DNA of 64,000 nt from Burkholderiales bacterium (GCA_050248795.1 JBFWRS010000001.1:11587-75586), one strand, 5' to 3'; shown: positions 44,906 to 61,370, numbered from the stretch's first letter. Notes: generated by a model from the sequence alone, not told the origin. Numbers and translations: made by a program.

Positions 44906-44906
44906 G

Positions 44907-46304
44907 TCAGTGTCCTCCTCCGGAGGGCGCCGCGGCGGGCGCGGCGCTCCTCGTCGTTTGCATGGCCCCGGGCGAGCGGCCGGTCAGCGCCATCTGGAAG
45001 TCCGATTCCGCCATCCAGAAGTCGCGCAAGGTCTCGATGTAGGCGTTCACCGCGGCGACCTGCTCGCGCGAATCGGCGAGCAGCTCGAACACGCTGGCAA
45101 GCATGCCGTTGTAGCGCAGCACCATCTCTTCCGAGATGCGCTTTCGGAGCGGCACGATCTCGTCGCGGTAGTGCTGCGCCACGTCGAAATTGGTGCGGTA
45201 AGCCGTGTACGCGTCGCGCACTTCCGAGCGCGCCTGGATCGCCGCCTCGGCCACGCGATTGACCGACTGCATGTACAGCCGCTCCGCCCGCGCGGTGCGC
45301 GCAGTGCCGAAGTCGAAGATGGGAATCCCGATTTCGACCTCCCAGCCGCGCTGGTTCTCCTGCCCGGTCTCGCTGTTGTTGATGAGGCCGAACTCGAGCA
45401 GGCTGACAAAGCGGGTGGCCTTGGTGAGCCCGAGCGAGCGCGCCAGCGCCTCGGTGTCGCGCCGCGCCGCCTGGACGTCCAGGCGCTGTGCGAGCGCCTG
45501 CGCCTCCAGATCCGGTCCGAACTCCCGCGGCGCCTGCGGCAGCTCCGGCAGGCGCCCCGGAAGCTGGAACGCGAGATCATCGCCCCACAGGCCCATGAGC
45601 CGCGCGAGCCGCTCCCGCGCGCTCGCTGCCGCCTGCCGCGCGCGGGCGAGCTGCGCAGTGGCTTCGGCGTAGAAGGCCTGCTCTCGCGCGAGCCCGAGCT
45701 TCGGCACGTTGCCGACCGCGGCCATGCGCCGCGCGAGCTCGGCGCTCGCTTCAGCGGCCTCCTTGACCTGCTCCGCGTACCTGGCGCTCTCTGCGGCTGA
45801 AACCGCCGTGAACCAGGCCTTGCGCGTCTCGAGGGCCACACGCAGGCCCTCCGAGGCCGCGCGGCTCTTCGCCGCAGCGAAGCGCGCTTCCTCGCCGCGC
45901 ACCGAGAGCGGGATGGTGAGGAGCCCGAGCACATCGAAGAACACGCTGCGCTCGCGCTCGATTTCGTCGCCGCGGCGCAGCCTGGCGAAGGAGAACGTCG
46001 GTCCGCGCCAGCGGCTCGCCTGCACCAGGTCGGCCTCGGCGATGCCGACTTCGGCGTACCCGGCCTGCAGGCCCGGGTTGTTGAGCAGCGCCACCTGGAC
46101 CGCTTCCTGGGGCCCGAGGGGCTTTGCGAGCAGCTCCTTCAGGCGCCCCCGCACCGTATTGGCTTCGTCTTCCGAGCGCACCCATTTGGTCTCAACGCCG
46201 GCCCGCTCCTGGACGGCCTTCTCCACGTCGGAAAATCCGGCGTCCTCGCTCAGGCTGGCGCATCCGCCGAGCAACACGATCGCCCCCACGACAAGGCGTC
46301 TCAT
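44907..46304 (-). CDS. TolC-family outer-membrane efflux lipoprotein
   Basis: Lipobox VLLGGCAS, two long coiled-coil repeats, 465 aa. Confidence 0.85.
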   Translation of the reverse strand: MRRLVVGAIVLLGGCASLSEDAGFSDVEKAVQERAGVETKWVRSEDEANTVRGRLKELLAKPLGPQEAVQVALLNNPGLQAGYAEVGIAEADLVQASRWRGPTFSFARLRRGDEIERERSVFFDVLGLLTIPLSVRGEEARFAAAKSRAASEGLRVALETRKAWFTAVSAAESARYAEQVKEAAEASAELARRMAAVGNVPKLGLAREQAFYAEATAQLARARQAAASARERLARLMGLWGDDLAFQLPGRLPELPQAPREFGPDLEAQALAQRLDVQAARRDTEALARSLGLTKATRFVSLLEFGLINNSETGQENQRGWEVEIGIPIFDFGTARTARAERLYMQSVNRVAEAAIQARSEVRDAYTAYRTNFDVAQHYRDEIVPLRKRISEEMVLRYNGMLASVFELLADSREQVAAVNAYIETLRDFWMAESDFQMALTGRSPGAMQTTRSAAPAAAPSGGGH

Positions 46305-46621
46305 CGGTGATGCCCTCCATGTCCACCGGCGGGCGGCTGCTGCGCGGGCGCCGTTTCAGGCTTCGCCGCGGGCTTCGTACTCCCGGACTCGGGTTTCGCC
46401 CCCTGTCCCCTGTGGCCACCCAGGTCCCTGGCCTGGTCGTTCATTTCGCGCCACTTCTCGATCTCCGGCTCGCGAAACGGCTGATACTCGGTGAACGCGG
46501 AGCGGTATTGCACCGCCGGCACACGCGCCTGCGCGTCGGACGGATCGCGCCGCACGTCGCTCTGCGCGGCGGCGCTCCCGCCGACGCACAGCAGGAACGT
46601 GCTCAAAATCACTCTTTGCAT
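46301..46621 (-). CDS. small secreted protein with His-rich C-terminus
   Basis: Starts at ATG 46621 (MQRVILSTFLLCVGGSAAAQ) and ends ...GGHGGHHR. 4-nt overlap with the TolC start. Confidence 0.5.
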   Translation of the reverse strand: MQRVILSTFLLCVGGSAAAQSDVRRDPSDAQARVPAVQYRSAFTEYQPFREPEIEKWREMNDQARDLGGHRGQGAKPESGSTKPAAKPETAPAQQPPAGGHGGHHR

Positions 46622-46715
46622 GGCTCTCCCGAAAGTCACAATCTCAGCTTGCGCGTGCGTTGATGCGGCACGCGCGGGCACGGCGCGCGGTCAGCGCGCC
46701 ACGAGCGTCTAGGAC

Positions 46716-47078
46716 TTAGAGAGCGAGAGGAGGACGGTCGAGGCTGTCGGGAAGAATCCCGGCGACACCCTCGGCGTGGTGCGGCTGGACTGCAAGGCCC
46801 GGAACAACAGGCACAACTAGAGGCGCCGATGAAGCGATCGAGCCGGCACCGCAGCACGCCACGCACGGTCCGCAATGCGCGCCGCCGGAATGGGCGTCGC
46901 CGTCGCCGGAATCTGTCTCCGCGATGGCCGCTGGTACGTGGTCGTGATCGGCAAGCTGACCTGGAGCGTCATGGTGGCCGAACGCCATGCAGATGCCCGA
47001 GCTCACCGCCGCCATGCCCTGTACAGGCACGGCGAAGGCGATCATCAACATCAGCAGAAAACGCTTGATCTGGATCAT
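46716..47078 (-). CDS. small secreted His/Cys-rich protein (DUF2946-like)
   Basis: Signal MIQIKRFLLMLMIAFAVPVQGMAA, then HHDAPG..DHDH and CGPCVACC. Confidence 0.5.
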   Translation of the reverse strand: MIQIKRFLLMLMIAFAVPVQGMAAVSSGICMAFGHHDAPGQLADHDHVPAAIAETDSGDGDAHSGGAHCGPCVACCGAGSIASSAPLVVPVVPGLAVQPHHAEGVAGILPDSLDRPPLAL

Positions 47079-47734
47079 GGCGCGGGCGAATCCTAGCACG
47101 GCTCAGGAACGCCTATTCGTTACCGATTGTTTCCGGACTCCGTCCGTTCGGCAGAGTTCCCTGGCGCCCCCATGCCGGACCAAAAATGTCACACGCCGCC
47201 TCCGCCCTCCCGTACGTGGAGGTAGATACCCACTACGGTCAGCGGCCGGCGCACCCGGCGCCTGAGCCGGGTCACGGCTGCCGCAGCCGCGGAAACGACG
47301 TCAGCGCCGGCGGCCTGTGTGCGCCAGATCGACAGCGTGTTGCTGCGGCTGGTGCGATAGGAAACGATGCAGCGGTAGCGCATCCAGGGTCCACTTGTTT
47401 TTCGGCGCGGCAGAGCATTGTAGTGTCGAGGTACAGGCCGTGGCCTACGGCGAAGGGCCGCATGTCGGCCGCCGGCTCAGTGATGCCCTTGGTGGACAAG
47501 AGATGCGGCATCACGCCGGCGTACATTACCAGCCAGTGCTCTTCGAGCTTGAGGCGCACCTCCTCGCGTCGCTCGCGTAGACGAGGTGCGGCCATGCCGC
47601 CGTCCTGTTCATCGACCGTCACATCGGCCGCGCTGGAATCCTTGATACACCGGCTCGAACTGGCGCCAGCAGGTCATGTCATCGCCGGGTACATGGGAAT
47701 TCGAGCGGGCTGCCACCGCTCGCCACCCTCATCT

Positions 47735-48862
47735 CTAAGCGTAGAGATGCCGCCGGAGGCGCCCTAGCCCGAGCAGCATGAGAACGCCACCGATTGCTGC
47801 AAGGGCTGCAAACTGCGGCCAGAGGGCTTCGAGCCCCACGCCCTTCAGGATCACGCCGAGCGCGATCTCCATGTAGTGGCGTACCGGGCTCGCCAGGGAG
47901 AGAACCTGCAGCGGCTGCGCCATGGTGTCGATCGGCACTACGGTTCCGGAAAGGAACATCATGGGAAAGAGCACGAAAAAGCCGATCAGCAGCGCCTGCT
48001 GCAGCGTGCGGGCGAAGGTCGAGATGAGGATGCCGATAGCGAGGCAGGCGGCTAGCGCCAGCGCCGAGGCAAGGACGAAGAGCGCGATGCTGCCCCGGAA
48101 AGGCACGCCGAACCAGGCCAGCACGCCGAGGCTCGGCCCGAGGGAGAGCATGCCGATCGTGAAAGGCGGCAGCATCTTGGCGGCCACTACCTCGCTGCGC
48201 CTGAGCGGGGTGAGCATGAGCTGCTCGGCGGTGCCGGTCTCCTTCTCGCGCACCATGCTCGCCGCGCTCGCCACCACGCCAACCACCAGCGCAGCCGCGA
48301 CGATCATGGAAATGGCCATGAAGTAGCGGAAATCGAGCGCCGGGTTGTACCAGACACGCGTGCGCAGCTCGACCTGAGGCAAGCGCACTGCCACGCCCGC
48401 GGCGCCGAGCTGCTCCCGCGCAAGCTCGTGCCCGAGCCGGGCGACGATGGAACTGGCATAGCCGCGCGCCACGTTCGCAGTGTTGGAATTGACTCCGGAG
48501 AGCACGAGCTGCAGCTCGCCGCCGTTACCTGCCGATACGGCGCGCGCGAAGCCGGGCGGGATTACGAGCGCGAGGTCGACGCGGCCGGCGTCGAGCACCC
48601 GGTCGATCTCGCGCGCGTCCTGGAGGGACGTCAAGCTGCCGAAATACTCGGTCGCCGTGAAGCGCTCGATCACGCGCTGGCTGAGCTGCGTGCGATCCTG
48701 GTCGTACACCGCGAGCCGCAGGTTCCTCACGTCGAAGCTGAGCGCGTACGTGCACACGATCACTTCCGCGGTGTACAGCCAGAGGACGAGCGCCATCAGC
48801 ATCCGGTCGCGCAGGAACTGCCGGAATTCCTTCGCCGCGGCGGCCGCGAGCCTTCCGCTCAT
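47735..48862 (-). CDS. ABC-2 type exporter permease (second permease)
   Basis: Begins MSGRLAAAAAKEFRQFLRDRML, has a large periplasmic loop, then 5 TM with REKETGTAEQL. ATGA overlap with the upstream permease. Confidence 0.85.
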   Translation of the reverse strand: MSGRLAAAAAKEFRQFLRDRMLMALVLWLYTAEVIVCTYALSFDVRNLRLAVYDQDRTQLSQRVIERFTATEYFGSLTSLQDAREIDRVLDAGRVDLALVIPPGFARAVSAGNGGELQLVLSGVNSNTANVARGYASSIVARLGHELAREQLGAAGVAVRLPQVELRTRVWYNPALDFRYFMAISMIVAAALVVGVVASAASMVREKETGTAEQLMLTPLRRSEVVAAKMLPPFTIGMLSLGPSLGVLAWFGVPFRGSIALFVLASALALAACLAIGILISTFARTLQQALLIGFFVLFPMMFLSGTVVPIDTMAQPLQVLSLASPVRHYMEIALGVILKGVGLEALWPQFAALAAIGGVLMLLGLGRLRRHLYA

Positions 48863-49975
48863 GCCACCTTCTTGCGCAGCCGCAGGCTGGCGATGCCGAC
48901 AAGGATCGCTGCATAAAGCGCCAGCAGCGCGAGGTTGCCGGCGAGGTACTCGATGCCTGCACCCTTGAGAAAGATGTCCCGGCTCACGTCGTTGAAGTAG
49001 CGCGCGGAAGAAGTACGTGTAAAGCTGCAGCACGTAGGGCATGGTGAGGATGGGGAACAGGAAGCCCGAGAATAGGAACGAAGGCATGAGCGTGGCGATG
49101 AAGGAAAGGAACACCGCCGCCACCTGGGTGCGGACCATGGTCGAGATGAACACGCCCAGCCCCACCGTGACGAACACGTAGAGCGCGGAGGCACCCAGGA
49201 GCAGCCCGAGGCTGCCCCTGAATGGAATGTCGAACCACAACGTGCCCGCGGCGAGAATGAGCAGCATCTCGACGAAAGCGATCGCGGCGTAAGGGACGAT
49301 CTTGCCGATGATGAAGAGCGGCGGCGTGAGCGGCGAGACGTAGATCTGCTCGATGGTGCCGCGCTCCTTCTCGCGCACGATCGAGAGCGCCGTGAGCATC
49401 GGCGGAAACGCCATCAGCAGCACCGCGAACAGGCCGGGCACGATGTAATTCACGCTTCTCATCGGCGCGTTGTACCAGACGCGCGCGGACAGCCGGAGCG
49501 TTGCCGGCATCGCGAGCCCCGCCTGGCTGGCGCGGCTTTCGGCAAGACGCATCGCATGGCGGTCGACGACGGCGGCGGCGTAGTTCGCGACGATGAGGGC
49601 GGTGGCGGAGAACGACCCGTCGACGATGGCCTGCACCGCCACGGTGTCGCCGGCGGCGACGCGGCGCGAGAAGCCGGGCGGGATCGCCAGTACCACGGTT
49701 GCCTCGCCGCGATCGAGCGCTCGATCGACCTCGAGCGGCGAGGCGAGGTCGGCGCGCAGGCTGAAGTAGCCGCTCGCGGTGAACGCCTCGACGAGGCGCG
49801 CGCTCTCCTGGCTGCGGTCCTGGTCGTAGACCGCGAGCGGCGTGTCCTCCACGTCGAGCGAGATGCCGTAGCCGAAGATGAACAGCATCACGAGCGGCAG
49901 GAACACTGCGACAGCGAGCGTGATCGGGTCGCGCACAAGCTCGGTAAATTCCTTGCGCAGGAGCGCGGCGAGCAT
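48859..49975 (-). pseudogene. ABC-2 type exporter permease (first permease) with disrupted frame near 49006
   Basis: MLAALLRKEFTELVRDPI...REKERGTIEQI...YVLQLYTYFF, then the frame changes to ARYFNDVSRDIFLKGAG...RLRKKVA. The span is 1117 nt, not a multiple of 3. Confidence 0.75.
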
Positions 49976-51450
49976 CACGACGCCTCCAGCAGGCGGAAGA
50001 ACACTTCCTCGAGCGGCACGCCGCCGTGCGCGGAGCGCAGCCGCTGGGGCGTATCGAGCGCGAGGAGGCGTCCGCGGTCGATAAAGGCGACCCGGTCGCA
50101 GCCTTCGGCCTCGCGCAGGTAGTGCGTGGTAACGAGGACCGCCGTGCCGCTTCGCGCGATGGCGGCGACCAGCGTCCAGAAGGCGCGGCGAGATGCGGGG
50201 TCGACCCCGGCCGTGGGCTCGTCGAGGAAGAGCACCTGCGGCTGGTGCAGCAGCGCGCAGCCGAGCGCGAGGCGCTGGCGCAGCGCCCCCGAGAGGCTGC
50301 GCGTGAGCATGCCTTCGCTCCCCTGGAGCCCGGCGGCGGCGAGCACCCACCGCGCGCGCTCCTCGATCTCGCCCCTGTCCAGGCCGTATGCCCCACCGAA
50401 GAAGGCGATGTTCTCGCGCACGGTGAGATCGAGGTAGAGCGAGAACTTCTGCGACATGTAACCGATGCGCCCCCGCACCGCTTCGGCCTGCCGGACGACG
50501 TCGATGCCGGCGACGCGCACCTCGCCCGCGCTCGGCTCGAGGATCCCGCACAGCATGCGGATCGTCGTGCTCTTGCCCGAGCCGTTGGGTCCGAGCAGCC
50601 CGAACACTTCGCCGCGGCGTACTTCGAAGGAAATGCCGTCGACCGCCTTGAAGCTGCCGAAGGATCGCGCGAGGCCGCGCACCGCGATCGCGTCGCCGGT
50701 GACGGTCCGTGAGGGGAAAGACACGACGGCCGCCGGCGCTCGGGCAGGCAGCATGGCGGCGAGCGCCGCCTCGAGATCGGCGCCGAACGCCGCCGGGCGA
50801 TCGCAGGCGATCATCCGCCCGGCGTCGAAGAATGCCACCCGGTCGCAGCGCTCGGCCTCGTCGATGTAGGAGGTGGCAATCACCACGGTCTTCTCCGCGG
50901 TGCGGGACTCCTCGAGGATGCGCCACAGCTCGCGGCGCGAGCGCGGATCGACGCCCAGCGTCGGCTCGTCGAGCACCAGGATGTCGGGCTCATGGATCAG
51001 GCTGCAGCACAGCGCGAGCTTCTTCTGCATCCCGCCCGAGAGATCGCGGGCGAGCCGCCGCAGGAACGCCGACAGGCCGGCAAAGCGCATCAGACGCGCG
51101 ATGCGTGCCTGCGCCGCGGGTCCGGGCACCCGGTGCAGGGCGGCAAAAAAGCGCAGGTTCTCCTCCACCGTGAGGTCCCCATAGAGCGAGTAGGCCTGCG
51201 ACATGTAGCCGAGCTGCGCGGTGATGCGAGCGGCGTCCTTCACGCTGTCGAGTCCCGCCACGCTCACCCGGCCTTCGGTCGGATCGAGGATCGCGCACAG
51301 CGACTGCATGAGGGTGGTCTTCCCCGAGCCGTCGGCGCCAACTACGGCGAACATCTCGCCGCGGCGCACCTTCAGTGTCACTCCACGCAGCGCCCAGCGC
51401 TCGCCGAAGCGCCGAGAGAGGCCGTTCACGACGATGACATCGTTGCTCAC
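49975..51450 (-). CDS. ABC transporter ATP-binding protein with two fused ATPase domains (YbhF-like)
   Basis: GTG start at 51450 (GTGA overlap with the HlyD stop). Walker A GADGSGKTT and GPNGSGKST; signatures LSGGMQKKL and LSGALRQRL. Confidence 0.9.
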   Translation of the reverse strand: MSNDVIVVNGLSRRFGERWALRGVTLKVRRGEMFAVVGADGSGKTTLMQSLCAILDPTEGRVSVAGLDSVKDAARITAQLGYMSQAYSLYGDLTVEENLRFFAALHRVPGPAAQARIARLMRFAGLSAFLRRLARDLSGGMQKKLALCCSLIHEPDILVLDEPTLGVDPRSRRELWRILEESRTAEKTVVIATSYIDEAERCDRVAFFDAGRMIACDRPAAFGADLEAALAAMLPARAPAAVVSFPSRTVTGDAIAVRGLARSFGSFKAVDGISFEVRRGEVFGLLGPNGSGKSTTIRMLCGILEPSAGEVRVAGIDVVRQAEAVRGRIGYMSQKFSLYLDLTVRENIAFFGGAYGLDRGEIEERARWVLAAAGLQGSEGMLTRSLSGALRQRLALGCALLHQPQVLFLDEPTAGVDPASRRAFWTLVAAIARSGTAVLVTTHYLREAEGCDRVAFIDRGRLLALDTPQRLRSAHGGVPLEEVFFRLLEAS

Positions 51451-52573
51451 CAGGCCGCGTCGTCCTGCCACTTGATGTGTACGTCGGCAGGCATGCCGGG
51501 CTTGAGGTAGCCCTCGGGATTGTCGATGCGCACCTTGACGCCGAAGACGAGCTTCTCGCGCTCGTCCTGCATGTGCACTTCCTTCGGCGTAAATTCGGCC
51601 TGCTGCGCCACTTCGACCACCCGGCCGGCAAAGAAGCGTCCCGGGAATGCGTCCACATGGATGCGCACCGGGTTGCCCAGGCGCAGCTTTCCGAGGTCCT
51701 TCTGCGCCACATAGACCCTCACGAACAGCTCCTCGAGATCGATGAGGGTGGCGATGGGTCTTCCCGGCGCCGCAAGCTCGCCGGGCTCGGCGAGGCGGCT
51801 GACCAGCGTGCCCTCGGAGGGGGCAACCAGGCGCGCATCGCGCAACGCCACCTCGACCTCGTCGGCCCGCGCGCGCGCGGCGTTGAGCTGGGCGGCGAGC
51901 GCGGCCCGCTCCGCCTGCAGCCTGCGCTCGTCCTTTTCCCGTACCGCGACTTCGCCGCTCGCCGCACCCGCCCGCTGCGCCGCCGCCCGCGCCTCCTCGC
52001 GCGCGCGCAGCGCGGCCTCGAGCCGCGCCGCCGATGTGCGGTTGCGCGCACGCACCTCGTCCATGTAGCTCTCGCTGACGAATCCTTCGCGACCGAGCTT
52101 CTCGAAGCGCTCGAGCGCCGCGCGATCCTGGCGCTGCTGCGCCTGCGCGACGAGCACTTCGGCCTCGGCTCGCTTGAGCGCCTCCTCGGCCTGGTGCACG
52201 CCGTGGGCGAGCGTGCCGCGCGTCACCTCCGTCCCAGGCGCGCCTGCTCGATCGCGGTGTCGATTCGGGCGATCTGCGCCTCGGCCGCCTCGGCGAGGGC
52301 TTTGGCCTGCGCCAGGCGCGCCTCGATGTCGGCCGCGCCGATCTGGGCGACGAGGTCACCCTTCGCCACTTGGGCGCCCTCGCGCACCGCGACGACTTCC
52401 ACGATGCCGCCGTTCTTCGCGCTTACCGTGACTTCAGTACCGCGCACCTGGCCGTTGGCCTGGAGGATGCCCGACGGCGGCCTCGGCCAGAGCCAGGCGA
52501 TGGCGGTCCCCACGAGCGCCGCCACGGCCAGCGCAAGCGCTGCGGCGGCAAGATATCGGCGCTCAATGCGCAT
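51447..52573 (-). pseudogene. HlyD-family membrane fusion protein split into two ORFs at 52223-52226
   Basis: The N-terminal ORF (TM, lipoyl half, coiled coil) ends ...AIEQARLGRR-TGA. The second ORF starts at an overlapping GTG (VTRGTLAHGVHQAEEAL...) and carries the rest of the hairpin plus the beta-barrel. Total span is 1127 nt, not a multiple of 3. Confidence 0.7.
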
Positions 52574-52916
52574 CCGCGCCCTCGGCGGCCTTGACCTTGA
52601 GCTTCAAGCCCGTAATCCCCACGACGAGCGCCTCCTCCCCGAGGGCCAGCCGCTTTCCGAGCATCTCGGCCGACCAGAGCTCGCCGTGAACGAGCAGTCT
52701 TGCGCTCCCGCCGTCGAGCTCGACCACCCGTCCGTGCTCGCCGATCATGCCCTCCGCTCCGGTCATGGCCGGCCTTCGCGCCGTCCTGACAGCGAGCACA
52801 TAGATCCAAAGGACGAGCGCCACGGCAAGCCCGTAGATCGGCAGGGCCACCGAGAGCGGCAGGAGCCACAACACGGGCAAGGCGATGACCGGCAAGAATA
52901 GCAGGACGTGGCACAT
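52563..52916 (-). CDS. NfeD-like membrane protein (TM + C-terminal OB domain)
   Basis: Starts at ATG 52916: MCHVLLFLPVIALPVLWLLPLSVALPIYGLAVALVLW... then EGMIGEHGRVVEL...LLVHGELWSAE. Confidence 0.6.
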   Translation of the reverse strand: MCHVLLFLPVIALPVLWLLPLSVALPIYGLAVALVLWIYVLAVRTARRPAMTGAEGMIGEHGRVVELDGGSARLLVHGELWSAEMLGKRLALGEEALVVGITGLKLKVKAAEGADAH

Positions 52917-52972
52917 GGCCGGTCGATCGTGCCGGGCGGCTCTAGCTCGAGTTAGGAAACATGGCCTTGAAG

Positions 52973-53227
52973 CTAGTGGCCGATGCGCCGGTTTTCGTTC
53001 TGGCTGTTGCTGTGGCGCGTTCTGAGCTGGTTCTCCCAGCTCTCGTGGTCGCCCTTTTCCCAGCCGCTCGAGCCGTACGCCGATGGGGCGTTTTCCCACG
53101 GCTGGGTGTCGGGCTTGCCGCGGTACTTGCCGTCCTTGTACAGCGCCGTCTGCTCGCGCTCGCCGCAGCCCGCAACGCCGACTGCGAGTAGCGCCGCCGC
53201 AATGGCCAAGCTAGATAAGCGTTTCAT
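52973..53227 (-). CDS. small lipoprotein
   Basis: Starts at ATG 53227. Lipobox AVGVAGCG. 84 aa with Trp/Glu-rich repeats (PWENAP, GWEKGDHESWEN). Confidence 0.5.
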   Translation of the reverse strand: MKRLSSLAIAAALLAVGVAGCGEREQTALYKDGKYRGKPDTQPWENAPSAYGSSGWEKGDHESWENQLRTRHSNSQNENRRIGH

Positions 53228-53616
53228 TCGAGCCTCCATCGGAAGGTGCGCGGTTTCGCCTCGCCCGGGCGGCTGATGCGCAGCTCGAGGGCCTGCGGCC
53301 GCGGCTCGATGGCATTGAACCTGAGCACGCCGCTGCGGTGGTGGCCTCCCGGCGCGGCGCCGTCCCAGGCGAGCGCCTTGAACTCGTTGCCGCGATCGTC
53401 CACCAGCACCGCGCTGCCCGCCAGGTCGTCCGAGAGATCCTGGCTGTGCGTGTCGAGCACGATGGAAAAGTCCCATGTCTTCGCGCCCGCAACGAGCTTG
53501 GCGGGCGTGACGGCAACCGTCACGCCGCCGGCGGAGTTCTTCTGCGCGGCGAGCTGCGCGGCGGCGTTGAACGCAAGCAGCGTTGCCGCTACGAGCCAGA
53601 GAAGTCGATAAGTCAT
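53224..53616 (-). CDS. secreted hypothetical protein (beta-rich)
   Basis: Starts at ATG 53616. Signal MTYRLLWLVAATLLAFNAAAQ. 130 aa. ATGA overlap with the downstream lipoprotein gene. Confidence 0.5.
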   Translation of the reverse strand: MTYRLLWLVAATLLAFNAAAQLAAQKNSAGGVTVAVTPAKLVAGAKTWDFSIVLDTHSQDLSDDLAGSAVLVDDRGNEFKALAWDGAAPGGHHRSGVLRFNAIEPRPQALELRISRPGEAKPRTFRWRLE

Positions 53617-53767
53617 TGCAGTCCTTTCTTCGATCGGTTCAGTCAATCCCGGGGCGATCTGTCGGTCGGCTCGCCTATCCCCTTCCGCCGCGTGAAGACG
53701 GCTACCAAAATTGCGGCGCAGATCACGAGAACCAGCAAACCCCAGTTGCTCGCAAGCCAGTCCATCC

Positions 53768-55615
53768 TCATGCCGCCTTTGGCAGGCCGGATGGCTGCGC
53801 CGCGTTCGCAAGCTGCGCGACGATGCTTGCGACGTCCGGCTCGGTCAGCGTCTCGCGCTCGAGGAGTCGTGCCGCCGCGCTTTCCAGCGTTTCCCGATGG
53901 TGCGTGAGAAGCTCCAGCGCACGCTTGAAGGCGGAGGCGACGATCTCGGTCACGGCCTTGTCGATGGCTTGCGCGGTGTGCTCGCTGTAGCTGCGCGGGG
54001 CGGTGTAGCCGGGCACCTGCAGCAGCGGCGAGGCTTCCTGCTCGAGCGAGAGGTTGGCGAGGGACGGGTGCATGCCGTAGCGCGTCACGATGGAGCGCGC
54101 GATGTCCGAGACCTTGGCGAGATCGTCTGCGGCGCCGGTCGAGACCCGGCCGAATACGAGCTGCTCCGCGGCGCGGCCGCCGAGCAGCACCGCCATCTTG
54201 TTCTCCAGCTCCTCGCGGGTCATGAGGAAGCGGTCCTCGGTCGGGCGCTGGATGGTGTAGCCGAGCGCGCCGATGCCGCGCGGGATGATGGAGACCTTGT
54301 GCACCGGATCGCTGCCCGGCAGGGTCATCGCCACCAGCGCGTGGCCCATCTCGTGATAGGCGACCGTGCGGCGCTCCATGGGGTTCAGGATGCGGCTCTT
54401 CTTCTCAAGTCCGGCGACGATGCGCTCCACCGCCATGGTGAAGTCGTCGAGCGTGACCGCATCGCTGCCCCGGCGCGTGGCGACGAGCGCCGCCTCGTTC
54501 ACCAGGTTGGCGAGATCGGCGCCCGAGAACCCGGGTGTCAGCGCTGCAATGCTGGCGAGCTCCACGCCGGGCGCAAGCCGGATCTTCTTGATGTGCACCT
54601 CCAGGATCTGCACGCGTCCGGACTTGTCCGGCCGGTCGACCAGCACCTGGCGGTCGAAGCGCCCGGCGCGCAGCAGGGCTGGATCGAGCACTTCGGGCCG
54701 GTTCGTGGCCGCCAGAAGCACCAGCCCGGTGGAGGGATCGAAGCCGTCCAGCTCGGCGAGGAGCTGGTTGAGCGTCTGCTCCTTCTCGTCGTGCCCGCCC
54801 GTGATACCGAAGCTGCCGCGTGCGCGTCCGAGCGCATCGAGCTCGTCGATGAAGATGATGGCAGGGGCCTTCTGCCGTGCCTGCTCGAAGAGGTCGCGCA
54901 CTCTCGCCGCGCCGACGCCGACGAACATCTCGACGAATTCAGAGCCCGAAATCGAGAAGAAGGGGACGCCCGCCTCGCCCGCCACCGCCCTCGCGAGCAG
55001 CGTCTTGCCGGTGCCCGGTGGGCCGACAAGGAGCACGCCCTTTGGCAGCCGGCCGCCGAGCCGCCCGTAGCGCCCGGGATCCTTCAGGAATCCCACCACC
55101 TCGCGCAGCTCGTCCTTCGCCTCGTCGACGCCTGCCACGTCGGCGAAGGTGACCTTGGTGTCGGTCTCGACGTAGACCTTCGCCTTGCTCTTGCCGATCG
55201 ACATCATCCCGCCCAGCCCGCCGTGCTGGCCCATCACGCGCTTGGCGAGGAACATCCAGATGCCGAAAAAGATCAGCGCCGGCAGCACCCAGCCGAGAAC
55301 GTCCCGCAGGAACGTGTTCTCCACGACACCGGTGAACTTGATGTCGTACTGCGAGAGGTCCTTGGCCAGCTCGGGGTCGACGCGTGTCGTGACGATGCGG
55401 GTGCGCCCGTCGGTGGTGGGTTTCTTGAGCTTGCCTTGGATGAGATTGTTCGAAATGGCGATCTCCTCCAGCTCGCCGTTCTTCAGGTGGTGCTGGAATT
55501 CGCTGTAGGGAATCGTCTGCACCTGGTTCATGTTGACCCAGGCGTCGCGCAGCAGGACCACCGCGGTCAGGGCGATCACCAGGTACCAGAGGTTGAACTT
55601 GGTCTGCTTTTCCAT
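53768..55615 (-). CDS. ftsH: ATP-dependent zinc metalloprotease FtsH (island-borne paralog)
   Basis: Two N-terminal TM segments, AAA+ Walker [21 protein letters not shown], and the zinc site [11 protein letters not shown] at 55615. Confidence 0.9.
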
Positions 55616-55743
55616 CTTCGCAGCGTGACACCGGCGGGCAAGGCAGGGTTGATCAAGGTCAAATTCGGGCGCCATAGCCGCCGGCGCGGCGCCCGAAACG
55701 CCGGAAAGGGGGTTACGGCACCACGCTCATGGCTGCGCTCTCG

Positions 55744-55995
55744 CTAGGAGCAGCAGCAACCGCTCTTCTTTGTCGTCGTGCCGGCGGCGGCTCCGGCCTC
55801 CGCGACGGCCGCGGGATAGCCGGCGTCGTCCAGGGCCCGGATCAGCGCCTGCGCCGGCGCGCCGCTTTCGACACGCACGCGCTTATTCTGGAGGTCGACA
55901 TCGACGTTGGCAGCGGCGTCGACAGATTTCACCGCGCGCGTCACGGCGCCGACGCAATGGCCGCACGTCATGTCCTTCACATTCAGCTCGATCAT
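55744..55995 (-). CDS. heavy-metal-associated (HMA) domain metallochaperone with Cys-rich tail
   Basis: MIELNVKDMTCGHCVGAV, with a C-terminus ending ...KKSGCCCS. ATG at 55995. Confidence 0.8.
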   Translation of the reverse strand: MIELNVKDMTCGHCVGAVTRAVKSVDAAANVDVDLQNKRVRVESGAPAQALIRALDDAGYPAAVAEAGAAAGTTTKKSGCCCS

Positions 55996-56121
55996 GGAAA
56001 TCTCCTTTTGAAGTGCATTCCACACAAGGAGGACTCTGCAGCCTCCCATAGTGGGAGGGTCAAGCGCTTGACACAGATCAAAAGGAGCCCGCCCGGCGCC
56101 GGGCGTCGGCGGGAAACGGCT

Positions 56122-56523
56122 TCAGCGCCAGGCTTGCTCGGCGCCGCCGCTCGTACGCGCTGTTCCGAGCGCTCGCCCGGCACCGGACGTCATGGAAGCC
56201 ATGCGGCGGCATGCCTCGGCGCACCGCCGGCACGCCTCGGCGCATTCGCGGCAGTGCTGCATCTTGCCGTGCTTGTCGCATTCGTCGGCGCACGCGTCGC
56301 ATACTTTGGCGCAGGTCTCGCAGACGGCCGCCGCAAGCTCGCTTCCGCGCCCCATGTAGCCGGCTGCAAGGCGACACATTTCGGCGCAGTCGATATCCAG
56401 CTGGATGCAGCGGGCCAGCATCTTGACGTCGCTTTCCCGAAGACAGGCGGCCGCGCAGTGGTCGCAGGCGGTGGCACAGGCATAGCAGGCATCGATGCAG
56501 GACTTCATCTGGTCATGGGGCAT
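56122..56523 (-). CDS. four-helix-bundle Cys-rich copper-binding protein (Csp/DUF326-like), no signal peptide
   Basis: Repeated CxxxC/CxxC on helices: CIDACYACATACDHCAAAC...CAEMC...CETCAKVCDACADEC...CRECAEACRRCAEAC. Confidence 0.8.
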   Translation of the reverse strand: MPHDQMKSCIDACYACATACDHCAAACLRESDVKMLARCIQLDIDCAEMCRLAAGYMGRGSELAAAVCETCAKVCDACADECDKHGKMQHCRECAEACRRCAEACRRMASMTSGAGRALGTARTSGGAEQAWR

Positions 56524-56804
56524 GGATCACTCCTTCTGGGCGGGCGCAGGGGCAAAGTCATCGCGGCGCCGCAGGCTCAGCCCGCATACAGGCTCAACGG
56601 CACGCCGTCCGGACCGCACTCGCTCACGGCACACTCTTCCGACTTCCGTGCCAGCAGAACCGGCGAGGATCGCCTGGACGCCAATCGTCGTCGCACCGCG
56701 ACGGCGGCAGCGAGGACGACCAGTCCGAGAGCGAGCAGGGTCCTGGAGCTCATGCCCGGGTGCCGCAAGTCGTGTGCCGTTGGCGGGCGCGCCGGAAGAG
56801 CGGG

Positions 56805-57203
56805 TCAAGCCTCATCGGCTCCCGAGGAGAGACTTTCGATGATCGGGCACCCGCGCCCTTGCCTTCCCGTCCGGCATGCGCGGATCAGCTTGGCGAGCGC
56901 GGCCTGAATCCGGCGCAGGTCAGAGATCTTGCTGTCCACGAGCCGCTTCTTCTGCTCGGCGAAGGTCCGTGTTTCCATGCAGTGCTCGCCCACCGACAGA
57001 TCGAGCAACAGTCTCACCTCGTCGAGCGCAAAGCCGAGCCCCTGGGCGCGCTTGATGAAGCGCAGCCGGTCCGCCGCCTCCGGGCCGTAGCGGCGCACCG
57101 AGCCGTGCGCGCGGGCGGGCCTGGGCATCAAGCCGAGGCGCTGGTAATAGCGGATGGTTTCCACATGCACGCCCGTCTGCTCGGCGAGCGCGCCTATCTT
57201 CAT
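56805..57203 (-). CDS. merR: MerR, Hg(II)-responsive transcriptional regulator
   Basis: MKIGALAEQTGVHVETIRYYQRLGL...GSVRRYG. Metal-ligand cysteines at ...GEHC... and ...CRTGRQGRGCPII. Divergent from merT. Confidence 0.85.
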   Translation of the reverse strand: MKIGALAEQTGVHVETIRYYQRLGLMPRPARAHGSVRRYGPEAADRLRFIKRAQGLGFALDEVRLLLDLSVGEHCMETRTFAEQKKRLVDSKISDLRRIQAALAKLIRACRTGRQGRGCPIIESLSSGADEA

Positions 57204-57239
57204 GTCCTGCGCTTTCTGCTGCGGCATGGGAAAGAGGCC

Positions 57240-57270
57240 TTGATTCCGTAGCTGACTACGGGAATAAGCT
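57240..57270 (+). promoter_or_regulatory. mer operator/promoter: -35 TTGATT, 19-bp spacer with dyad CCGTAG-N4-CTACGG, -10 TAAGCT
   Basis: TTGATTCCGTAGCTGACTACGGGAATAAGCT closely parallels the Tn501/Tn21 PmerT architecture (TTGACT-ccgtac...gtacgg-TAAGGT with a 19-bp spacer). Confidence 0.8.
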
Positions 57271-57276
57271 TACCGC

Positions 57277-57678
57277 GTGGAGAAGTCGTTCCGGCAAACC
57301 GCGTCTTTCGCAGCTGAGGAAGCGAGTACCGCTACGGCCAAGAGCGAGTCCGTGGCGCTTACGGCAGGTGGGCTCGCCGCCCTGCTCTCCGGCGCCTGCT
57401 GCGTTGCCCCGTTCCTTCTGGTCAGCGCAGGTCTCGGTGGCGCCTGGCTCGCGAACCTGCAGTTGCTCGAGCCTTATCAGCCCCTGTTCACCGGCATTGC
57501 GCTCGCCGCGCTCGGGTTCGCCGGCTGGCGCATCTACCGCCCCGCCACCGATTGCGGCCCTGGCGAGGCATGCGCCGTGCCGCGACTTCGGCGCAGCTTG
57601 CGCGTCGCGTTCTGGGCTGTCGCGGCACTCCTTGTCGCGATGCTCGGCTTCCCTTATCTCGCGCCGCTGCTTTACTGA
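57277..57678 (+). CDS. merT: mercuric ion transporter MerT
   Basis: GGLAALLSGACCVAPFLLVSAGLGGAW...LEPYQPLF...CGPGEAC. The start is uncertain: GTG 57277 abuts the predicted -10, and GTG 57352 is an alternative. Confidence 0.8.
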   Translation: MEKSFRQTASFAAEEASTATAKSESVALTAGGLAALLSGACCVAPFLLVSAGLGGAWLANLQLLEPYQPLFTGIALAALGFAGWRIYRPATDCGPGEACAVPRLRRSLRVAFWAVAALLVAMLGFPYLAPLLY

Positions 57679-57690
57679 GAGAACATCACG

Positions 57691-57969
57691 ATGAAGATGC
57701 TTCGCGCCGCAATCCTGCTCGCCCTGCTTGCCTCGCCGACCGCCTTCGCCGAAACGAAAACCGTCACGCTTTCGGTGCCGGGCATGAACTGCGACCTCTG
57801 CCCGCTCACCATCAAAAAGGCGATCTCCAGGGTTCCGGGAGTCGCCAGTGTGGAGGCAAGCTACGAGAAGAAGCAGGCCGTCGTGACCTTCGACGACAGC
57901 AAGACGTCGGTCGAGGCGCTCATGAGGGCGACGGCGAATGTCGGCTATCCGTCGACCGTGAGACCATGA
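57691..57969 (+). CDS. merP: periplasmic mercury-binding protein MerP
   Basis: Signal peptide and HMA fold with GMNCDLCP (a variant of GMTCxxC). Confidence 0.8.
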   Translation: MKMLRAAILLALLASPTAFAETKTVTLSVPGMNCDLCPLTIKKAISRVPGVASVEASYEKKQAVVTFDDSKTSVEALMRATANVGYPSTVRP

Positions 57970-58178
57970 CGTCACCGGTTCTCGAGTCCATCCTGACGTG
58001 CCCGAAGTGCGGCATCGCGAAGCAGGAGGCGATGCCGACTGACGCCTGCCAGTTCTACTACGAGTGCACGAGCTGCGGCGCACTGCTGCGGCCCAATCCA
58101 GGGGACTGCTGCGTTTTCTGCTCCTTCGGCTCGGTGAAGTGCCCGCCGATCCAGGCGCAGCGCTCCTGCTGCAGCTAG
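57966..58178 (+). CDS. GDCCVxC-domain small Cys-rich protein
   Basis: 70 aa: CPKCG...CQFYYECTSCGALLRPNPGDCCVFCSFGSVKCPP. ATGA overlap with merP. Real 3' part of track ORF 57552..58178. Confidence 0.75.
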   Translation: MTSPVLESILTCPKCGIAKQEAMPTDACQFYYECTSCGALLRPNPGDCCVFCSFGSVKCPPIQAQRSCCS

Positions 58179-58199
58179 CGCTTCGGCCTGGACAGGACA

Positions 58200-59543
58200 A
58201 TGGTGAAGGCCTTCGATCTCATTGTCATCGGAACCGGGACCGCCGCTGCCACGGCCGCACACCGCTGCGCCAACGCGGGCTGGCGGGTGGCAGTGATCGA
58301 TCATCTGCCCTACGGTGGCACCTGCGCCTTGCGCGGCTGCGATCCCAAGAAGGTGCTCGTCGGCGTCGCCGAAGCGCTGGATCAAGCGCGCCGCATGAAC
58401 GGCAGGGGACTGAGCGGCGAGCCGTCGATCGACTGGCGGGCGTTGATGGCCTTCAAGAGAAGCTTCACCGAGCCGGTTCCGGAAAACATGGAGCAGAGCT
58501 TCCGTGAGAAGGGCATCGCGACCTACCACGGCCGGGCGCGCTTTGCCGGCCCGCGCACGGTAGAGGTGGGCGAAACTCTCGAGGGACGTTTCGTGCTCAT
58601 CGCCACCGGCGCCGAGCCCGTCAAGCTCGGCATTCCGGGCGAAGAGCATCTCGCCACGAGCACCCAGTTTCTGGAACTGGAGGAGTTGCCAAGGCGCATC
58701 GTGCTCGTCGGCGGAGGCTATATCGCCGCCGAGTTCTCGCACATCGCGGCACGGGCAGGAGCCGCGGTCACGATCCTGCAGCGTGGAGAGAGGATGCTGA
58801 AGCCCTTCGACGCCGACGTCGTCGCCTGGCTCACCGAGAAATCGCGCGAAATCGACATCGACATCCGCCTGAAGACAACCGTTCAGCGCATCGAAAAGAC
58901 CTCCCGTGGGCTTGTGGTCCAGACGGTAGCGGACGGAAAGCCGGAATCGTTCACCGCCGACCTGGTCGTGCATGCCGCCGGCCGCGTTCCCGATCTCGAT
59001 TCCCTGGATCTGAAGACGGCGGGCGTCGAAGCCACGCAAGGCCGGCTCGAGCTCAACGACTATCTGCAAAGCGTTTCCAACCCCGCCGTGTACGCGGCCG
59101 GCGATGCCGCAGCCAAGGGACCGCCGCTCACGCCCGTCTCCGCGCACGACGGGCGCGTTGCATCGGCGAACATGCTGAAGGGCAATCATCGAAAGCCCAA
59201 CTATCTCGGCGTGCCGAGCGTCGCCTTCACCATTCCTCCCATCGCCGCCGTCGGCCTGACGGAAGAGGCGGCGCGGGCGCAAGGGCTCAAGTTCCAGGCG
59301 CGCGCGCAGAAGGCTTCGAGCTGGTACACCGCGCGGCGCGTCGCCGAGCCGGCCTACGGGTTGAAGGTGCTCGTCGAAGACGGCACGGACCGCATCCTCG
59401 GCGCTCACCTCGTCGGGCCGCATGCAGACGAAGTGATCAACATCTTCGCCTTCGCGATCCGTTCAGGGCATACAGCCGGGGACCTCCAAGACACGATGTT
59501 CGCCTACCCCACCGGCGCCTCGGACATCGGATATCTGCTATGA
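58200..59543 (+). CDS. class-I pyridine nucleotide-disulfide oxidoreductase in the MerA position (short, MerA-like but lacking NmerA and the C-terminal Cys pair)
   Basis: GTGTAA FAD motif, redox-active GGTCALRGCDPKK, second dinucleotide fold VGGGYIAAEF. The C-terminal interface motif reads FAYPTGASD (Tyr where GR/LipDH have His). Only 3 Cys in total. Confidence 0.7.
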   Translation: MVKAFDLIVIGTGTAAATAAHRCANAGWRVAVIDHLPYGGTCALRGCDPKKVLVGVAEALDQARRMNGRGLSGEPSIDWRALMAFKRSFTEPVPENMEQSFREKGIATYHGRARFAGPRTVEVGETLEGRFVLIATGAEPVKLGIPGEEHLATSTQFLELEELPRRIVLVGGGYIAAEFSHIAARAGAAVTILQRGERMLKPFDADVVAWLTEKSREIDIDIRLKTTVQRIEKTSRGLVVQTVADGKPESFTADLVVHAAGRVPDLDSLDLKTAGVEATQGRLELNDYLQSVSNPAVYAAGDAAAKGPPLTPVSAHDGRVASANMLKGNHRKPNYLGVPSVAFTIPPIAAVGLTEEAARAQGLKFQARAQKASSWYTARRVAEPAYGLKVLVEDGTDRILGAHLVGPHADEVINIFAFAIRSGHTAGDLQDTMFAYPTGASDIGYLL

Positions 59544-59630
59544 GCGCGCGCCGTTCCTTGCCGGCCATGCATCCCTTAAGTTCTCGGCAGCAGTAGCGCC
59601 CGCTGGCACGCGACTTGCCCTGCGAGCCTC

Positions 59631-59936
59631 ATGCAGCCCACAACGCCAGGTCCGGTGGCCTGTCCGGTCGACGCCACCATCCAAGAGGCGGCACGCCTCA
59701 TGGCGGAGCACGACCGCACGGAACTGCCCGTCGTCGATGCTGATTCCAAGCCCATCGGCGTCATCAGCGAGCGCGACATTACCCGCAGGGCGGTAGCCGC
59801 CGGCAAGGTGCCGATCACATCCGTACGGCAGGTGATGTCGCCCTCCCCCGCCCCCGCTGGCGGCGCGCCCAACCCTGCTGTCGACGACGACGAGGGCGCC
59901 TGCTGTGGGATGCTTTCCGGGCGCCGCGGCCCATGA
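59631..59936 (+). CDS. short CBS-domain protein (atypical, possibly degenerate)
   Basis: CPVDATIQEAARLMAEHDRTELPVVD...IGVISERDI is one good CBS motif. The second motif is compressed (VRQVMSPSPAPAGG...AVDDDEGACCGMLS). ATGA overlap with the next gene. Confidence 0.5.
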   Translation: MQPTTPGPVACPVDATIQEAARLMAEHDRTELPVVDADSKPIGVISERDITRRAVAAGKVPITSVRQVMSPSPAPAGGAPNPAVDDDEGACCGMLSGRRGP

Positions 59937-61370
59937 AGCACGGCAACGCCGGCGTGGCCGGGCACGACCACGGGCAGATGCTGCGGGACGAGCATCTCTC
60001 CACGCTGTGGCCGCACTACGCAAATCTGCTGCTCGGGCTGTGGCTCGTGACGAGCCCGTTCGCCTTCGGCTACCTCGGCGAGTTCGTGCCCGACGAGAAT
60101 CTGCTGCGCGTCATGCGGGAGCGCGGCCTGCCGTCCTTCGAGTGGCGCAACCTCGCCATGACCTGGAGCGACGTGGCGAGCCTGAGCGCTTATCGTGCTC
60201 TTCAGCGCGCTCGCCGCCTCGCCCTCGCGGCGCTACCCATGGTCACAGTGGGCCTGCGCGGTGGTGGGTTTCTGGCTGCTCTTCGCGCCGCTCGTGTTCT
60301 GGACGCCGCTGCCGGTGGCTTACGCGAACGACACCATCATCGGCGCGCTGGTGATCGCTTTCGCCGTTCTCATTCCGATGATGCCGGGAATGAGCATGGC
60401 CGGCATGATGGGCGGCCCCGATCTTCCGCCGGGCTGGGCCTATACGCCCTCGAGCTGGCTGCAGCGGCTGCCGATCGCCGTGCTCGCCGTGGTCGGCATT
60501 CTCATCGCGCGCTACCTCACCGCCTACCAGCTCGGCCACACCGACCGCGCGTGGGATCCGTTCTTCGGCGACGGCACCGAGACCATCATCACCTCCGACG
60601 TGTCGCGCGCCTTCCCCATCCCGGATGCGGGCCTCGGCACGGTGGCCTACATCATGGAGCTCCTTATGGCGGTGATGGGCGACAAGCGCCGCTGGCGCAC
60701 CATGCCGTGGATGGTGCTCGGCTTTTTCGTGCTGGTCGTGCCGCTGGGCGGGGTGAGCATCGGCTTCATCATCATCCAGCCCATCATCATCGGCACCTGG
60801 TGCACGCTCTGCCTCATCCAAGCGCTCGCCATGGCGGTGATGATCCCCTACTCGCTCGACGAGTTCGTCGCCATGGGGCAGTTCATGCTGGACGCGCGGC
60901 GCAAGGGCAAGCCGCTCTGGCGGATCTTGTGGATGGGCGACGCGATGGAGGGCGGCAGGGAGGACCCGGCCAAGGAGTTCCGCGGCGCCCCGCGCGAGAT
61001 GTGGCGGGAGGCGGTGCGGGGGGTGAACGTGCCCGTGGCGCTCGCGCTCAGTATCGCGCTCGGCGTGTGGCTGATGTTCACGCGGCTCGTCTTCGGCAAC
61101 TCGGGCGCGATGGCGAACAGCGACCACCTGGTGGGCGCGCTGGTCGTCACGTTCGCCATCATTGCCTGGGCGGAAGTGGCTCGGCCGGTGCGCTTCATCA
61201 ACATCCCCTTTGGCCTGTGGCTGGTCGCCGCGCCGTGGCTGCTCGACGGCGCAGGCTCGGCGCTCGCCGCTGCCAACAGCGTCGTGTCCGGCGTCCTGCT
61301 CATCGCGCTCTCTCTGCCGCGCGGGCCGGTGCGCGATTCGTACGCCGGCTGGGACCACTATATCTTTTAG
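59933..61370 (+). pseudogene. SPW-repeat / vitamin K epoxide reductase (VKOR) family membrane protein with frame disruption near 60183-60195
   Basis: Frame 1 reads MKHGNAGVAGHDHG...LLLGLWLVTSPFAFGY...MTWSDVAS, then continues in another frame as ALIVLFSALAAS...FWLLFAPLVFW...GTWCTLCLIQ (VKOR CxxC). The span is 1438 nt, not a multiple of 3. Confidence 0.7.

Follow-up and report, generated by a model that had tools for sequence, protein, structure and literature searches.

We analysed a 64-kb stretch of DNA from a Burkholderiales bacterium (GCA_050248795.1 JBFWRS010000001.1:11587-75586), referred to here as the window, by open reading frame (ORF) calls, inspection of the raw sequence and profile searches against NCBIfam and Pfam. 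Between positions 56805 and 59543 lies a mercury resistance (mer) operon in which merT, merP and a gene for a small GDCCVxC-domain protein are followed by a gene for a 447-aa flavoprotein disulfide reductase related to GbsMerA, the short mercuric reductase of Gelidibacter salicanalis. The operon is a MerR-regulated and, to judge only by the names of the nearest hits, probably betaproteobacterial member of this known but barely studied type. All elements that a preliminary description had reported for this interval were recovered at their coordinates in the ORF list, the raw sequence and the profile searches.

Organisation and regulation of the operon

The merR gene (56805-57227), encoding a Hg(II)-responsive MerR-family activator of 140 aa, lies on the minus strand and is divergent from the operon. 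On the plus strand, the operator-promoter merOP (57240-57270; TTGATT-CCGTAG-CTGA-CTACGG-GAA-TAAGCT) is followed by merT (57277-57678), encoding an inner-membrane Hg(II) importer, and by merP (57691-57969), encoding a periplasmic Hg(II)-binding protein with a signal peptide. The GDCCVxC gene (57966-58178; 70 aa) and the reductase gene (58200-59543) complete the operon. The ATGA overlap between merP and the GDCCVxC gene (ATG at 57966, merP TGA at 57967-57969) and the gap of 21 nt from the GDCCVxC stop codon to the reductase start at 58200 are as previously described, and so is the merOP with its 19-bp spacer. The claim of MerR control likewise held, on the strength of merOP, the MerR Cys triad and the profile matches of merT and merP.

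MerR scores 144.3 bits on TIGR02051, marginally under the cut-off of 150.85, and also matches Pfam MerR_1 and MerR-DNA-bind. When it is aligned with MerRs annotated as Hg(II)-responsive, its Cys83, Cys118 and Cys127 show no variation; they correspond to the three Hg(II)-binding Cys residues of Tn501 MerR (82/117/126). The merOP consists of a -35 hexamer TTGATT (57240-45), the dyad CCGTAG-N4-CTACGG (57246-61) and a -10 hexamer TAAGCT (57265-70). A Tn501-style merOP pattern has a single match within the window and none in 100 shuffles, and the site aligns base for base with the merOPs of Polaromonas and Acinetobacter mer operons. A standard sigma-70 scan, restricted to spacers of 16-18 nt, returned no promoter-like site in 56700-59800, which fits the 19-bp spacer of merOP. 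We consider the operon very likely to be Hg-responsive.

MerT matches PF02411 at 134.5 bits (cut-off 32.9) and NF010314 at 137.1 bits, under the cut-off of 150. Both of its Cys pairs are present, C41/C42 (a CC in the first transmembrane segment) and C93/C99 (in a loop), with the spacing of Tn501 MerT. MerP scores 116.8 bits on TIGR02052, above the cut-off of 92.55, and has the metal site GMNCDLC. The true merT start is uncertain, because the annotated GTG (57277) abuts the -10, 6 nt after the hexamer; this start implies a leaderless or near-leaderless message, or else a later start (GTG at 57352). The same arrangement is seen at the merT start of locus L099, and locus L001 (594-680) has ~34 extra bases with an AAGGAA Shine-Dalgarno ahead of the same GTG-GAC-AAG N-terminus. 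The five genes recur in the same order at both of these loci, at 81-86% protein identity and with their Cys residues conserved; L099 differs by a merC-like gene inserted between the GDCCVxC and reductase genes.

The short flavoenzyme

The reductase has the architecture Pyr_redox_2 + Pyr_redox_dim and contains only three Cys residues, C23, C42 and C47. It carries GGTCALRGCDPKK and has the C-terminal end ...FAYPTGASDIGYLL. Pfam searches and alignment bear out the preliminary description of a 447-aa enzyme without NmerA and without the C-terminal Cys pair of canonical mercuric reductase (MerA): there is no heavy-metal-associated (HMA)/NmerA domain and no C-terminal extension, the protein ends ...SDIGYLL and the alignment is gapped at MerA 558/559. 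Residues were compared in an alignment of Tn501-type (561 aa) and alphaproteobacterial MerAs, E. coli Gor, Lpd and RclA, and the short family. Cys42 and Cys47 align with the redox Cys136 and Cys141 of the 561-aa Tn501-type MerA. Tyr436 aligns with its Tyr535, a position occupied by His in Gor, Lpd and RclA, in agreement with the preliminary description of this Tyr as a MerA-like trait. At the Tyr194 position our alignment, which is uncertain in this region, places Glu and not Tyr; the GbsMerA structure paper gives Val at the equivalent site (PMC10587081). A Tyr...Ser combination replaces the His-Glu (HxxxxE) catalytic pair of disulfide reductases. C42, C47, D48, Y436 and S441 are invariant across 33 family members, as are the GGTCALRGCDPKK loop and YPxxxSD (33/33), whatever the genomic context.

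The enzyme scores below every curated NCBIfam cut-off. The top-scoring model is PRK06116 (glutathione reductase; 316.2 bits, cut-off 480), followed by TIGR02053 (MerA; 310.2 bits, cut-off 454.45), TIGR01350 (lipoamide dehydrogenase; 295 bits, cut-off 409) and TIGR01424 (glutathione reductase; 288 bits, cut-off 606). By far the best match in the PDB, at 421.5 bits over the full length, is 8K40/8K41, the short mercuric reductase GbsMerA of Gelidibacter salicanalis PAMC21136 (Pardhe et al., Sci Rep 2023, PMC10587081); a glutathione reductase (220.3 bits) and a Lysinibacillus MerA (212 bits) come next. GbsMerA also has neither NmerA nor the C-terminal Cys-Cys, the pair that canonical MerA requires to deliver Hg to the active site (PMC10587081). 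Published criteria for MerA (Boyd & Barkay 2012; Christakis et al. 2021) are the redox CxxxxC (RC607 Cys207/212, Tn501 Cys136/141), the C-terminal vicinal Cys (RC607 628/629, Tn501 558/559) and Tyr at RC607 264/Tn501 194 and at RC607 605/Tn501 535 (PMC8261052). The window enzyme departs from this definition in the C-terminal Cys pair, Tyr194, and score and clade, and possesses all features of the GbsMerA type; we therefore assign the operon to that type.

A small neighbour-joining (NJ) tree, with few outgroups sampled, was built with 200 bootstraps and explicit bipartition counts. The short enzymes, GbsMerA included, were monophyletic in 100% of bootstraps and six canonical MerAs formed a separate clade, also in 100%. 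The preliminary description had called for a phylogeny against MerA, glutathione reductase and lipoamide dehydrogenase. In our tree the family forms its own clade and groups with E. coli Gor in 91% of bootstraps and with MerA in 0.5%, without being a glutathione reductase. The label of a non-canonical MerA-like enzyme stands as far as the protein is short and tail-less, but it is no one-off; it belongs to a large, multi-phylum family outside the MerA clade. Each of two homologue searches gave at least 8000 candidates, with full-length relatives in Burkholderiales and Casimicrobiaceae metagenome-assembled genomes (MAGs) and in many Flavobacteriaceae. The enzyme matches 141 plasmid records at E<=1e-60, of which 117/141 are below 60% identity and include distant flavoenzymes.

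Assignment as a glutathione reductase, a lipoamide dehydrogenase or RclA was ruled out by the scores, the missing His-Glu pair and the tree. Moreover, a canonical merA was sought elsewhere in the 64-kb window and none was found, the short enzyme being the only class-I flavoprotein disulfide reductase there.

The GDCCVxC protein

The product of the 70-codon gene has 11 Cys residues and neither a signal peptide nor a membrane segment. It matches NF041374 at 106.4 bits (cut-off 40), and a Pfam search gave no family match. The Cys residues are laid out as CxxC...CxxC, GDCCVFC, C59 and a C-terminal CC tail (SCCS), and the N-terminal CxxC...CxxC gives weak zinc-ribbon and rubredoxin-like signals. 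In an alignment of 24 sequences C12, C15, C28, C34, C48, C49, C52 and C59 are invariant, and in one of 109 sequences C34, C37, C48, C59, C68 and C69 are at least 90% conserved. At 90% identity the homologues form 2481 clusters; at 50% there are 2989 representatives, and 352 plasmids carry the gene. A literature search found no paper naming GDCCVxC and a single one naming GbsMerA; a study of rhizobial merA1/merA2 does not appear to deal with the short family.

The vicinal CC stands near the C-terminus (...RSCCS in the window, ...KNCC in Gelidibacter) and resembles the ...SCCAG of MerA. This tail is present in 14/15 enzyme-linked and 59/71 unlinked GDCCVxC proteins. The domain also occurs in fusions, behind a MerC-like membrane protein with a CC motif (P0417, P0490), behind a cytosolic HMA domain (P0484) and as a tandem pair of divergent copies (P0426). 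The MerC-like and HMA fusions locate the domain where Hg leaves the uptake machinery on the cytosolic side. No fusion to the reductase was seen among the best 120 matches listed for each enzyme search (lengths 398-456 aa). On balance we regard a role of the GDCCVxC protein as a cytosolic Hg(II) carrier as slightly more likely than not.

Gene neighbourhoods

Two samples of loci were examined. The enzyme-centred sample comprised 26 loci, drawn from genomes, plasmids and metagenome contigs and by look-up of exact proteins, making 27 with the window; the GDCCVxC-centred sample comprised 80 metagenome loci, 27 of which had at least 1.5 kb on both sides. Among the enzyme-centred loci, a GDCCVxC gene alone accompanied the enzyme in 10/27, a canonical merA alone in 12/27, neither in 5/27 and both in 0/27. 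The zero overlap has p ~4e-4 (hypergeometric), calculated on loci that are phylogenetically non-independent; GDCCVxC-linked and MerA-linked enzymes are interleaved in a smaller tree. Well-flanked GDCCVxC loci carried merT in 16/27 cases, the short enzyme in 4/27 and a canonical merA in 0/27. As to the co-occurrence that the preliminary description proposed to test, GDCCVxC is found at 10/27 enzyme loci, and only 10/80 GDCCVxC loci carry any reductase.

Where both are present, the GDCCVxC gene and the enzyme gene usually overlap or are separated by a few nucleotides, and either may come first. Such adjacent pairs were found in Bacteroidota (Gelidibacter L095, Hymenobacter L092), in Alphaproteobacteria (Jiella, Pelagibacterium, Croceicoccus and a Beijerinckiaceae strain; L008, L090, L106, L108) and in metagenome contigs or MAGs of uncertain taxonomy (L001, L099, L012). 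GbsmerA itself is one of these cases, as the 68-aa "hypothetical protein" encoded directly after it is a GDCCVxC protein and the operon reads arsR-merTP-GbsmerA-GDCCVxC. At L099, whose enzyme is 86% identical to that of the window, the order is merR/merT-merP-GDCCVxC-merC-enzyme-merB, and at the Jiella locus (L090) it is merB-merT-merP-merF-like ORF-GDCCVxC-enzyme. MerB produces Hg(II), and in both of these merB operons the short enzyme is the only reductase found in the examined DNA. In Pelagibacterium, a MerR-regulated unit consists of GDCCVxC and the reductase with no transporter. The occurrence of GDCCVxC beside GbsMerA, its conservation across phyla and its exclusivity with canonical MerA appear, from a search of the literature, not to have been described before.

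In the 12 loci with a canonical MerA (L002, L003, L005, L089, L091, L093, L094, L104, L105, L107, L109, L111) the short enzyme gene lies directly before or after merA; these operons include those of Polaromonas pH6NP1 and Phaeobacter pP66_b. Since the canonical MerA is complete in all 12, the short enzyme is not simply a replacement for it. Some of the canonical MerAs of alphaproteobacterial type that lack NmerA (L005 3596-5020, L093 6409-7860, L094 3176-4588) have an N-terminal vicinal Cys motif (MSQCCETQ, MDQTVTKDDCCT, MKDCCTPKG), which may be a minimal stand-in for NmerA.

Non-mer contexts were seen as well. Homologues 70% identical to the window enzyme are found in two copper-resistance islands with no mer genes (L100, L101), one with RND/CusF, an outer-membrane efflux protein, a multicopper oxidase and CopB, the other with CopC and CopD. 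On some plasmids the enzyme gene lies beside a gene of glycoside hydrolase family 15 (L007 6001-9622, on pMR68; L107 4403-7347, Halomonas; H52, Stutzerimonas), and on pMR68 it also neighbours a 52%-identical paralogue, with Phe for Tyr, and a glucose 1-dehydrogenase gene.

Around 200 clinical plasmids resemble p30860-KPC (L006) in carrying merR-(merT)-merP-GDCCVxC and no reductase. They are of IncP-6-type and other types, come from Pseudomonas, Klebsiella, Aeromonas and Enterobacter, and their GDCCVxC unit is cut by a Tn3-family transposase gene, an arrangement also seen in Tn5563.

Downstream genes and the surrounding island

Two further plus-strand genes follow the reductase, and the membership of both in the operon is uncertain. 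An ORF with a single CBS domain (59631-59936; PF00571, 53.5 bits) begins 88 nt past the reductase stop (intervening 59544-59630), and a simple terminator scan gave no terminator-like site between the two. The CBS ORF, which has an acidic, Cys-containing tail (...DDDEGACCGMLSGRRGP), was not found beside the short enzyme in the other loci examined. It is followed by a gene for a SPW-VKOR-SPW membrane thiol oxidoreductase (59933-61370; PF07884, PF03779), split by an apparent frameshift near 60175-60195: the ORF from 59933 reads ...AMTWSDVASLSAYRA and the VKOR frame opens at 60195. At the Pelagibacterium locus (L008 1624-4164) an intact SPW-VKOR-SPW homologue with 60% identity and an epimerase-like N-terminal fusion immediately adjoins the merR-like/GDCCVxC/reductase unit.

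Upstream, positions 39407-56523 form a metal-stress island that opens after an apparent two-ORF transposase (39407-40545; identified from translated ORFs only) and is closed by the mer operon. It encodes an L,D-transpeptidase, a multicopper oxidase (43529-44905), an outer-membrane efflux protein, a large ABC-2 permease, FtsH (53768-55675), a CopZ-like protein ending ...SGCCCS (55744-56049) and a Cys-rich DUF326/Csp1-like protein (56122-56523). The window has a GC content of 66.9%. At 14437-19051 it holds an hscA-hscB-iscA-iscU-iscS-like block, read from ORF translations only, which indicates that the window is chromosomal and not of plasmid origin.

Discussion

We lean towards reading the locus as a GbsMerA-type, Hg(II)-inducible detoxification operon in which the GDCCVxC protein serves as a cytosolic Hg(II) carrier. 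By analogy with GbsMerA, which lost its activity in a Y437F mutant and raised the HgCl2 tolerance of E. coli in a disc assay (PMC10587081), the short enzyme would probably be the in vivo Hg(II) reductase of the operon. From what is established for MerR, the protein at the 19-bp-spacer merOP would switch on merT-merP-GDCCVxC-reductase in response to Hg(II), and MerP and MerT would, by homology, carry Hg(II) across the inner membrane. The cytosolic 11-Cys GDCCVxC protein might then receive the ion from the transporter, a step that the transporter fusions support. If the biochemistry of GbsMerA applies, the short enzyme would reduce Hg(II) to Hg(0) with NADPH at Cys42/Cys47, with Tyr436' and Asp48 partly substituting for the site of canonical MerA. 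We are least sure of a direct delivery of Hg(II) by GDCCVxC into the open channel of the active site, in which the CC tail at its C-terminus would act as an equivalent in trans of both the MerA C-terminal Cys pair and NmerA.

Judged from the sequences, such a direct hand-off is plausible though doubtful, and we put forward only tentatively a two-protein reduction in which GDCCVxC takes Hg(II) from MerT and inserts its CC tail into the channel of the tail-less reductase. If true, this would explain why GDCCVxC and canonical MerA do not co-occur in our sample. Because the two are mutually exclusive there, the data suggest that GDCCVxC covers a job that canonical MerA does for itself. The adjacency in either order across phyla, this exclusivity and the conserved CC tail are circumstantial support for a hand-off in trans.

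A number of observations weigh against this interpretation. On the side of the GDCCVxC protein, any reductase is present in only 10/80 of its loci (4/27 of those well flanked), and the recurrent architecture is merR/merT-merP-GDCCVxC without one. No fusion with the reductase occurs in the best 150 of the 2989 GDCCVxC representatives, and the AlphaFold2 model of the protein, computed from the 24-sequence alignment, is unusable (pLDDT 54, pTM 0.37). On the side of the enzyme, no alignment column separates GDCCVxC-linked from MerA-linked members (33 sequences, at the 80%/80% level), 12/27 loci lack GDCCVxC and have a complete canonical MerA beside it, and 5/27 are not mer loci at all but copper islands, carbohydrate or redox clusters and others. 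Moreover, the short family groups with E. coli Gor in 91% of bootstraps of the small NJ tree and with MerA in 0.5%. The biochemical record of GbsMerA adds to this. The published assays followed NADPH oxidation and not the release of Hg(0), and GSSG (oxidised glutathione) and Ag+ were also turned over, at 20-50% of the Hg rate (PMC10587081). GbsMerA was active alone, both in vitro and in E. coli, with no partner, and is listed at 474.7 umol/min/mg with 12.8 ug enzyme and 100 uM NADPH over 3 min (Table 1 of PMC10587081). By our own arithmetic the turnover implied is far too fast for a 3-minute trace, so the activity units are doubtful.

Part of this evidence would fit a flavoenzyme that is an accessory redox enzyme of metal-stress islands and not a Hg(II) reductase, acting on a low-molecular-weight thiol disulfide, on oxidised GDCCVxC or other protein thiols, or on a different soft metal, for instance Cu(II), as in the annotation of E. 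coli RclA, or Ag(I); Hg would then be imported, buffered on GDCCVxC and reduced elsewhere or not at all. The 12 loci with a complete MerA and the five copper or other non-mer contexts speak for such a role, as do the identical invariant active-site residues in all contexts, the near-equal scores on the glutathione reductase and MerA models (316 vs 310 bits) together with the glutathione reductase side of the tree, and the GSSG- and Ag+-dependent NADPH oxidation of GbsMerA. The window operon itself sits within a copper island with CopZ, a Csp-like protein, a multicopper oxidase and an outer-membrane efflux protein. We nevertheless consider an accessory role unlikely. The acid-base pair His-Glu is replaced by Tyr...Ser, as in MerA, and GbsMerA oxidised NADPH best with HgCl2 and to a trivial extent with Cu (PMC10587081). 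Furthermore, the window gene is under MerR and merOP with the Hg-specific Cys triad, the short enzyme is the only reductase found in the examined DNA of the merB operons, and import of Hg(II) without a reductase is normally harmful, as established with merT/merP constructs.

It is also conceivable, though we would not favour it, that the enzyme is self-sufficient by the route proposed for GbsMerA, in which Tyr437' and Asp47 substitute for the missing delivery cysteines (PMC10587081), and that GDCCVxC partners the uptake proteins only, as a cytosolic Hg(II) sink or relay to cellular thiols; the adjacency would then reflect a shared operon type. This would agree with the protection of E. coli by GbsMerA in the absence of GDCCVxC or transporters (PMC10587081), with the many GDCCVxC loci that have merT/merP and no reductase, with fusions that join the domain to a MerC-like transporter and to HMA and not to a reductase, and with a CC tail as common in unlinked as in linked proteins. 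It accounts less readily for a tight adjacency that is kept though gene order flips across phyla, for the transporter-free Pelagibacterium unit or for the mutual exclusivity of GDCCVxC and canonical MerA in our sample. In addition, a partner-free assay with HgCl2 may not reflect the cell. The published assay contained HgCl2 and no thiols (PMC10587081). Canonical MerA depends on its C-terminal Cys pair when Hg(II) is bound to thiols but is not known to do so for HgX2 with small ligands. Thiol-free HgCl2 would bypass those cysteines, and the GbsMerA data are therefore compatible with more than one route in vivo. Finally, it seems highly improbable that the locus has no coherent function and arose by chance or by decay, as a defective mer remnant of the Tn5563 kind. 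Units with merR-merT-merP-GDCCVxC of the Tn5563 type have been called defective mer loci (PMC4785139), and the neighbouring SPW-VKOR gene is frameshifted. However, the five ORFs of the window operon are intact and tightly spaced behind a complete merOP, and the same genes recur in the same order at 81-86% identity in L001 and L099.

The GbsMerA-type operon with a GDCCVxC carrier, which we prefer, bears on how mercury resistance is surveyed. Such surveys require the MerA C-terminal Cys pair and hence leave the short family out, although in many mer operons from soil, marine and polar bacteria no reductase other than the short enzyme was found. Should it act on Hg(II) in vivo, microbial Hg reduction is underestimated by gene-based methods. 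If GDCCVxC is the Hg donor of the enzyme, this would answer how a MerA without delivery cysteines obtains thiol-bound Hg(II), and would give a function to a widespread, uncharacterised Cys-rich domain that sometimes contains selenocysteine and occurs in the Tn5563-type units of clinical KPC plasmids as well. Should the two-protein system be true, the published GbsMerA mechanism lacks its physiological partner.

Comparison with known systems

Among characterised reductases, the window enzyme is closest to GbsMerA (~448 aa), with which it shares 42% identity and the clade recovered in all bootstraps. C42/C47/D48 and Y436/S441 of the window enzyme correspond to Cys41/Cys46/Asp47 and Tyr437/Ser442 in GbsMerA numbering, and both genes lie in mer operons with MerT/MerP functions and an adjacent GDCCVxC gene. 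The two operons differ in that the window operon is under MerR/merOP where that of Gelidibacter has ArsR, in the separate MerT and MerP as opposed to a MerTP fusion, and in the position of GDCCVxC, upstream of the reductase in the window and downstream in Gelidibacter. The window branch, unlike GbsMerA, is known from sequence alone.

With canonical MerA (Tn501/Tn21, Bacillus RC607; TIGR02053) the enzyme has in common the class-I FAD/NAD(P)H fold, the redox CxxxxC, the Tyr at 535 and a place as last or near-last gene of a MerR-merT-merP operon. It differs in having neither Cys558/559 nor NmerA. Glu occupies the Tyr194 position, the second redox Cys is followed by Asp where MerA has Val, and five residues past the Tyr there is Ser where MerA has Glu; at ~30% identity the enzyme falls outside the MerA clade. 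E. coli Gor is of similar length and has the same domain order, but its His-Glu pair is absent from the window enzyme and identity is again ~30%. RclA, placed nearest to GbsMerA by the authors of that structure (PMC10587081), is a short class-I reductase with no C-terminal Cys pair and a link to metal and oxidative stress, being annotated as a cupric reductase and associated with reactive-chlorine stress. However, it keeps His-Glu, is ~30% identical to the window enzyme and does not group with the short family, joining MerA in only 45% of bootstraps. The GDCCVxC protein, for its part, resembles NmerA and the MerA tail in being small, cytosolic and Cys-rich, with a vicinal CC a few residues from the C-terminus, and in occurring where canonical MerA is absent. 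It differs from them in not having an HMA fold by sequence, in being a separate polypeptide and in its usual company, which is transporters and no reductase.

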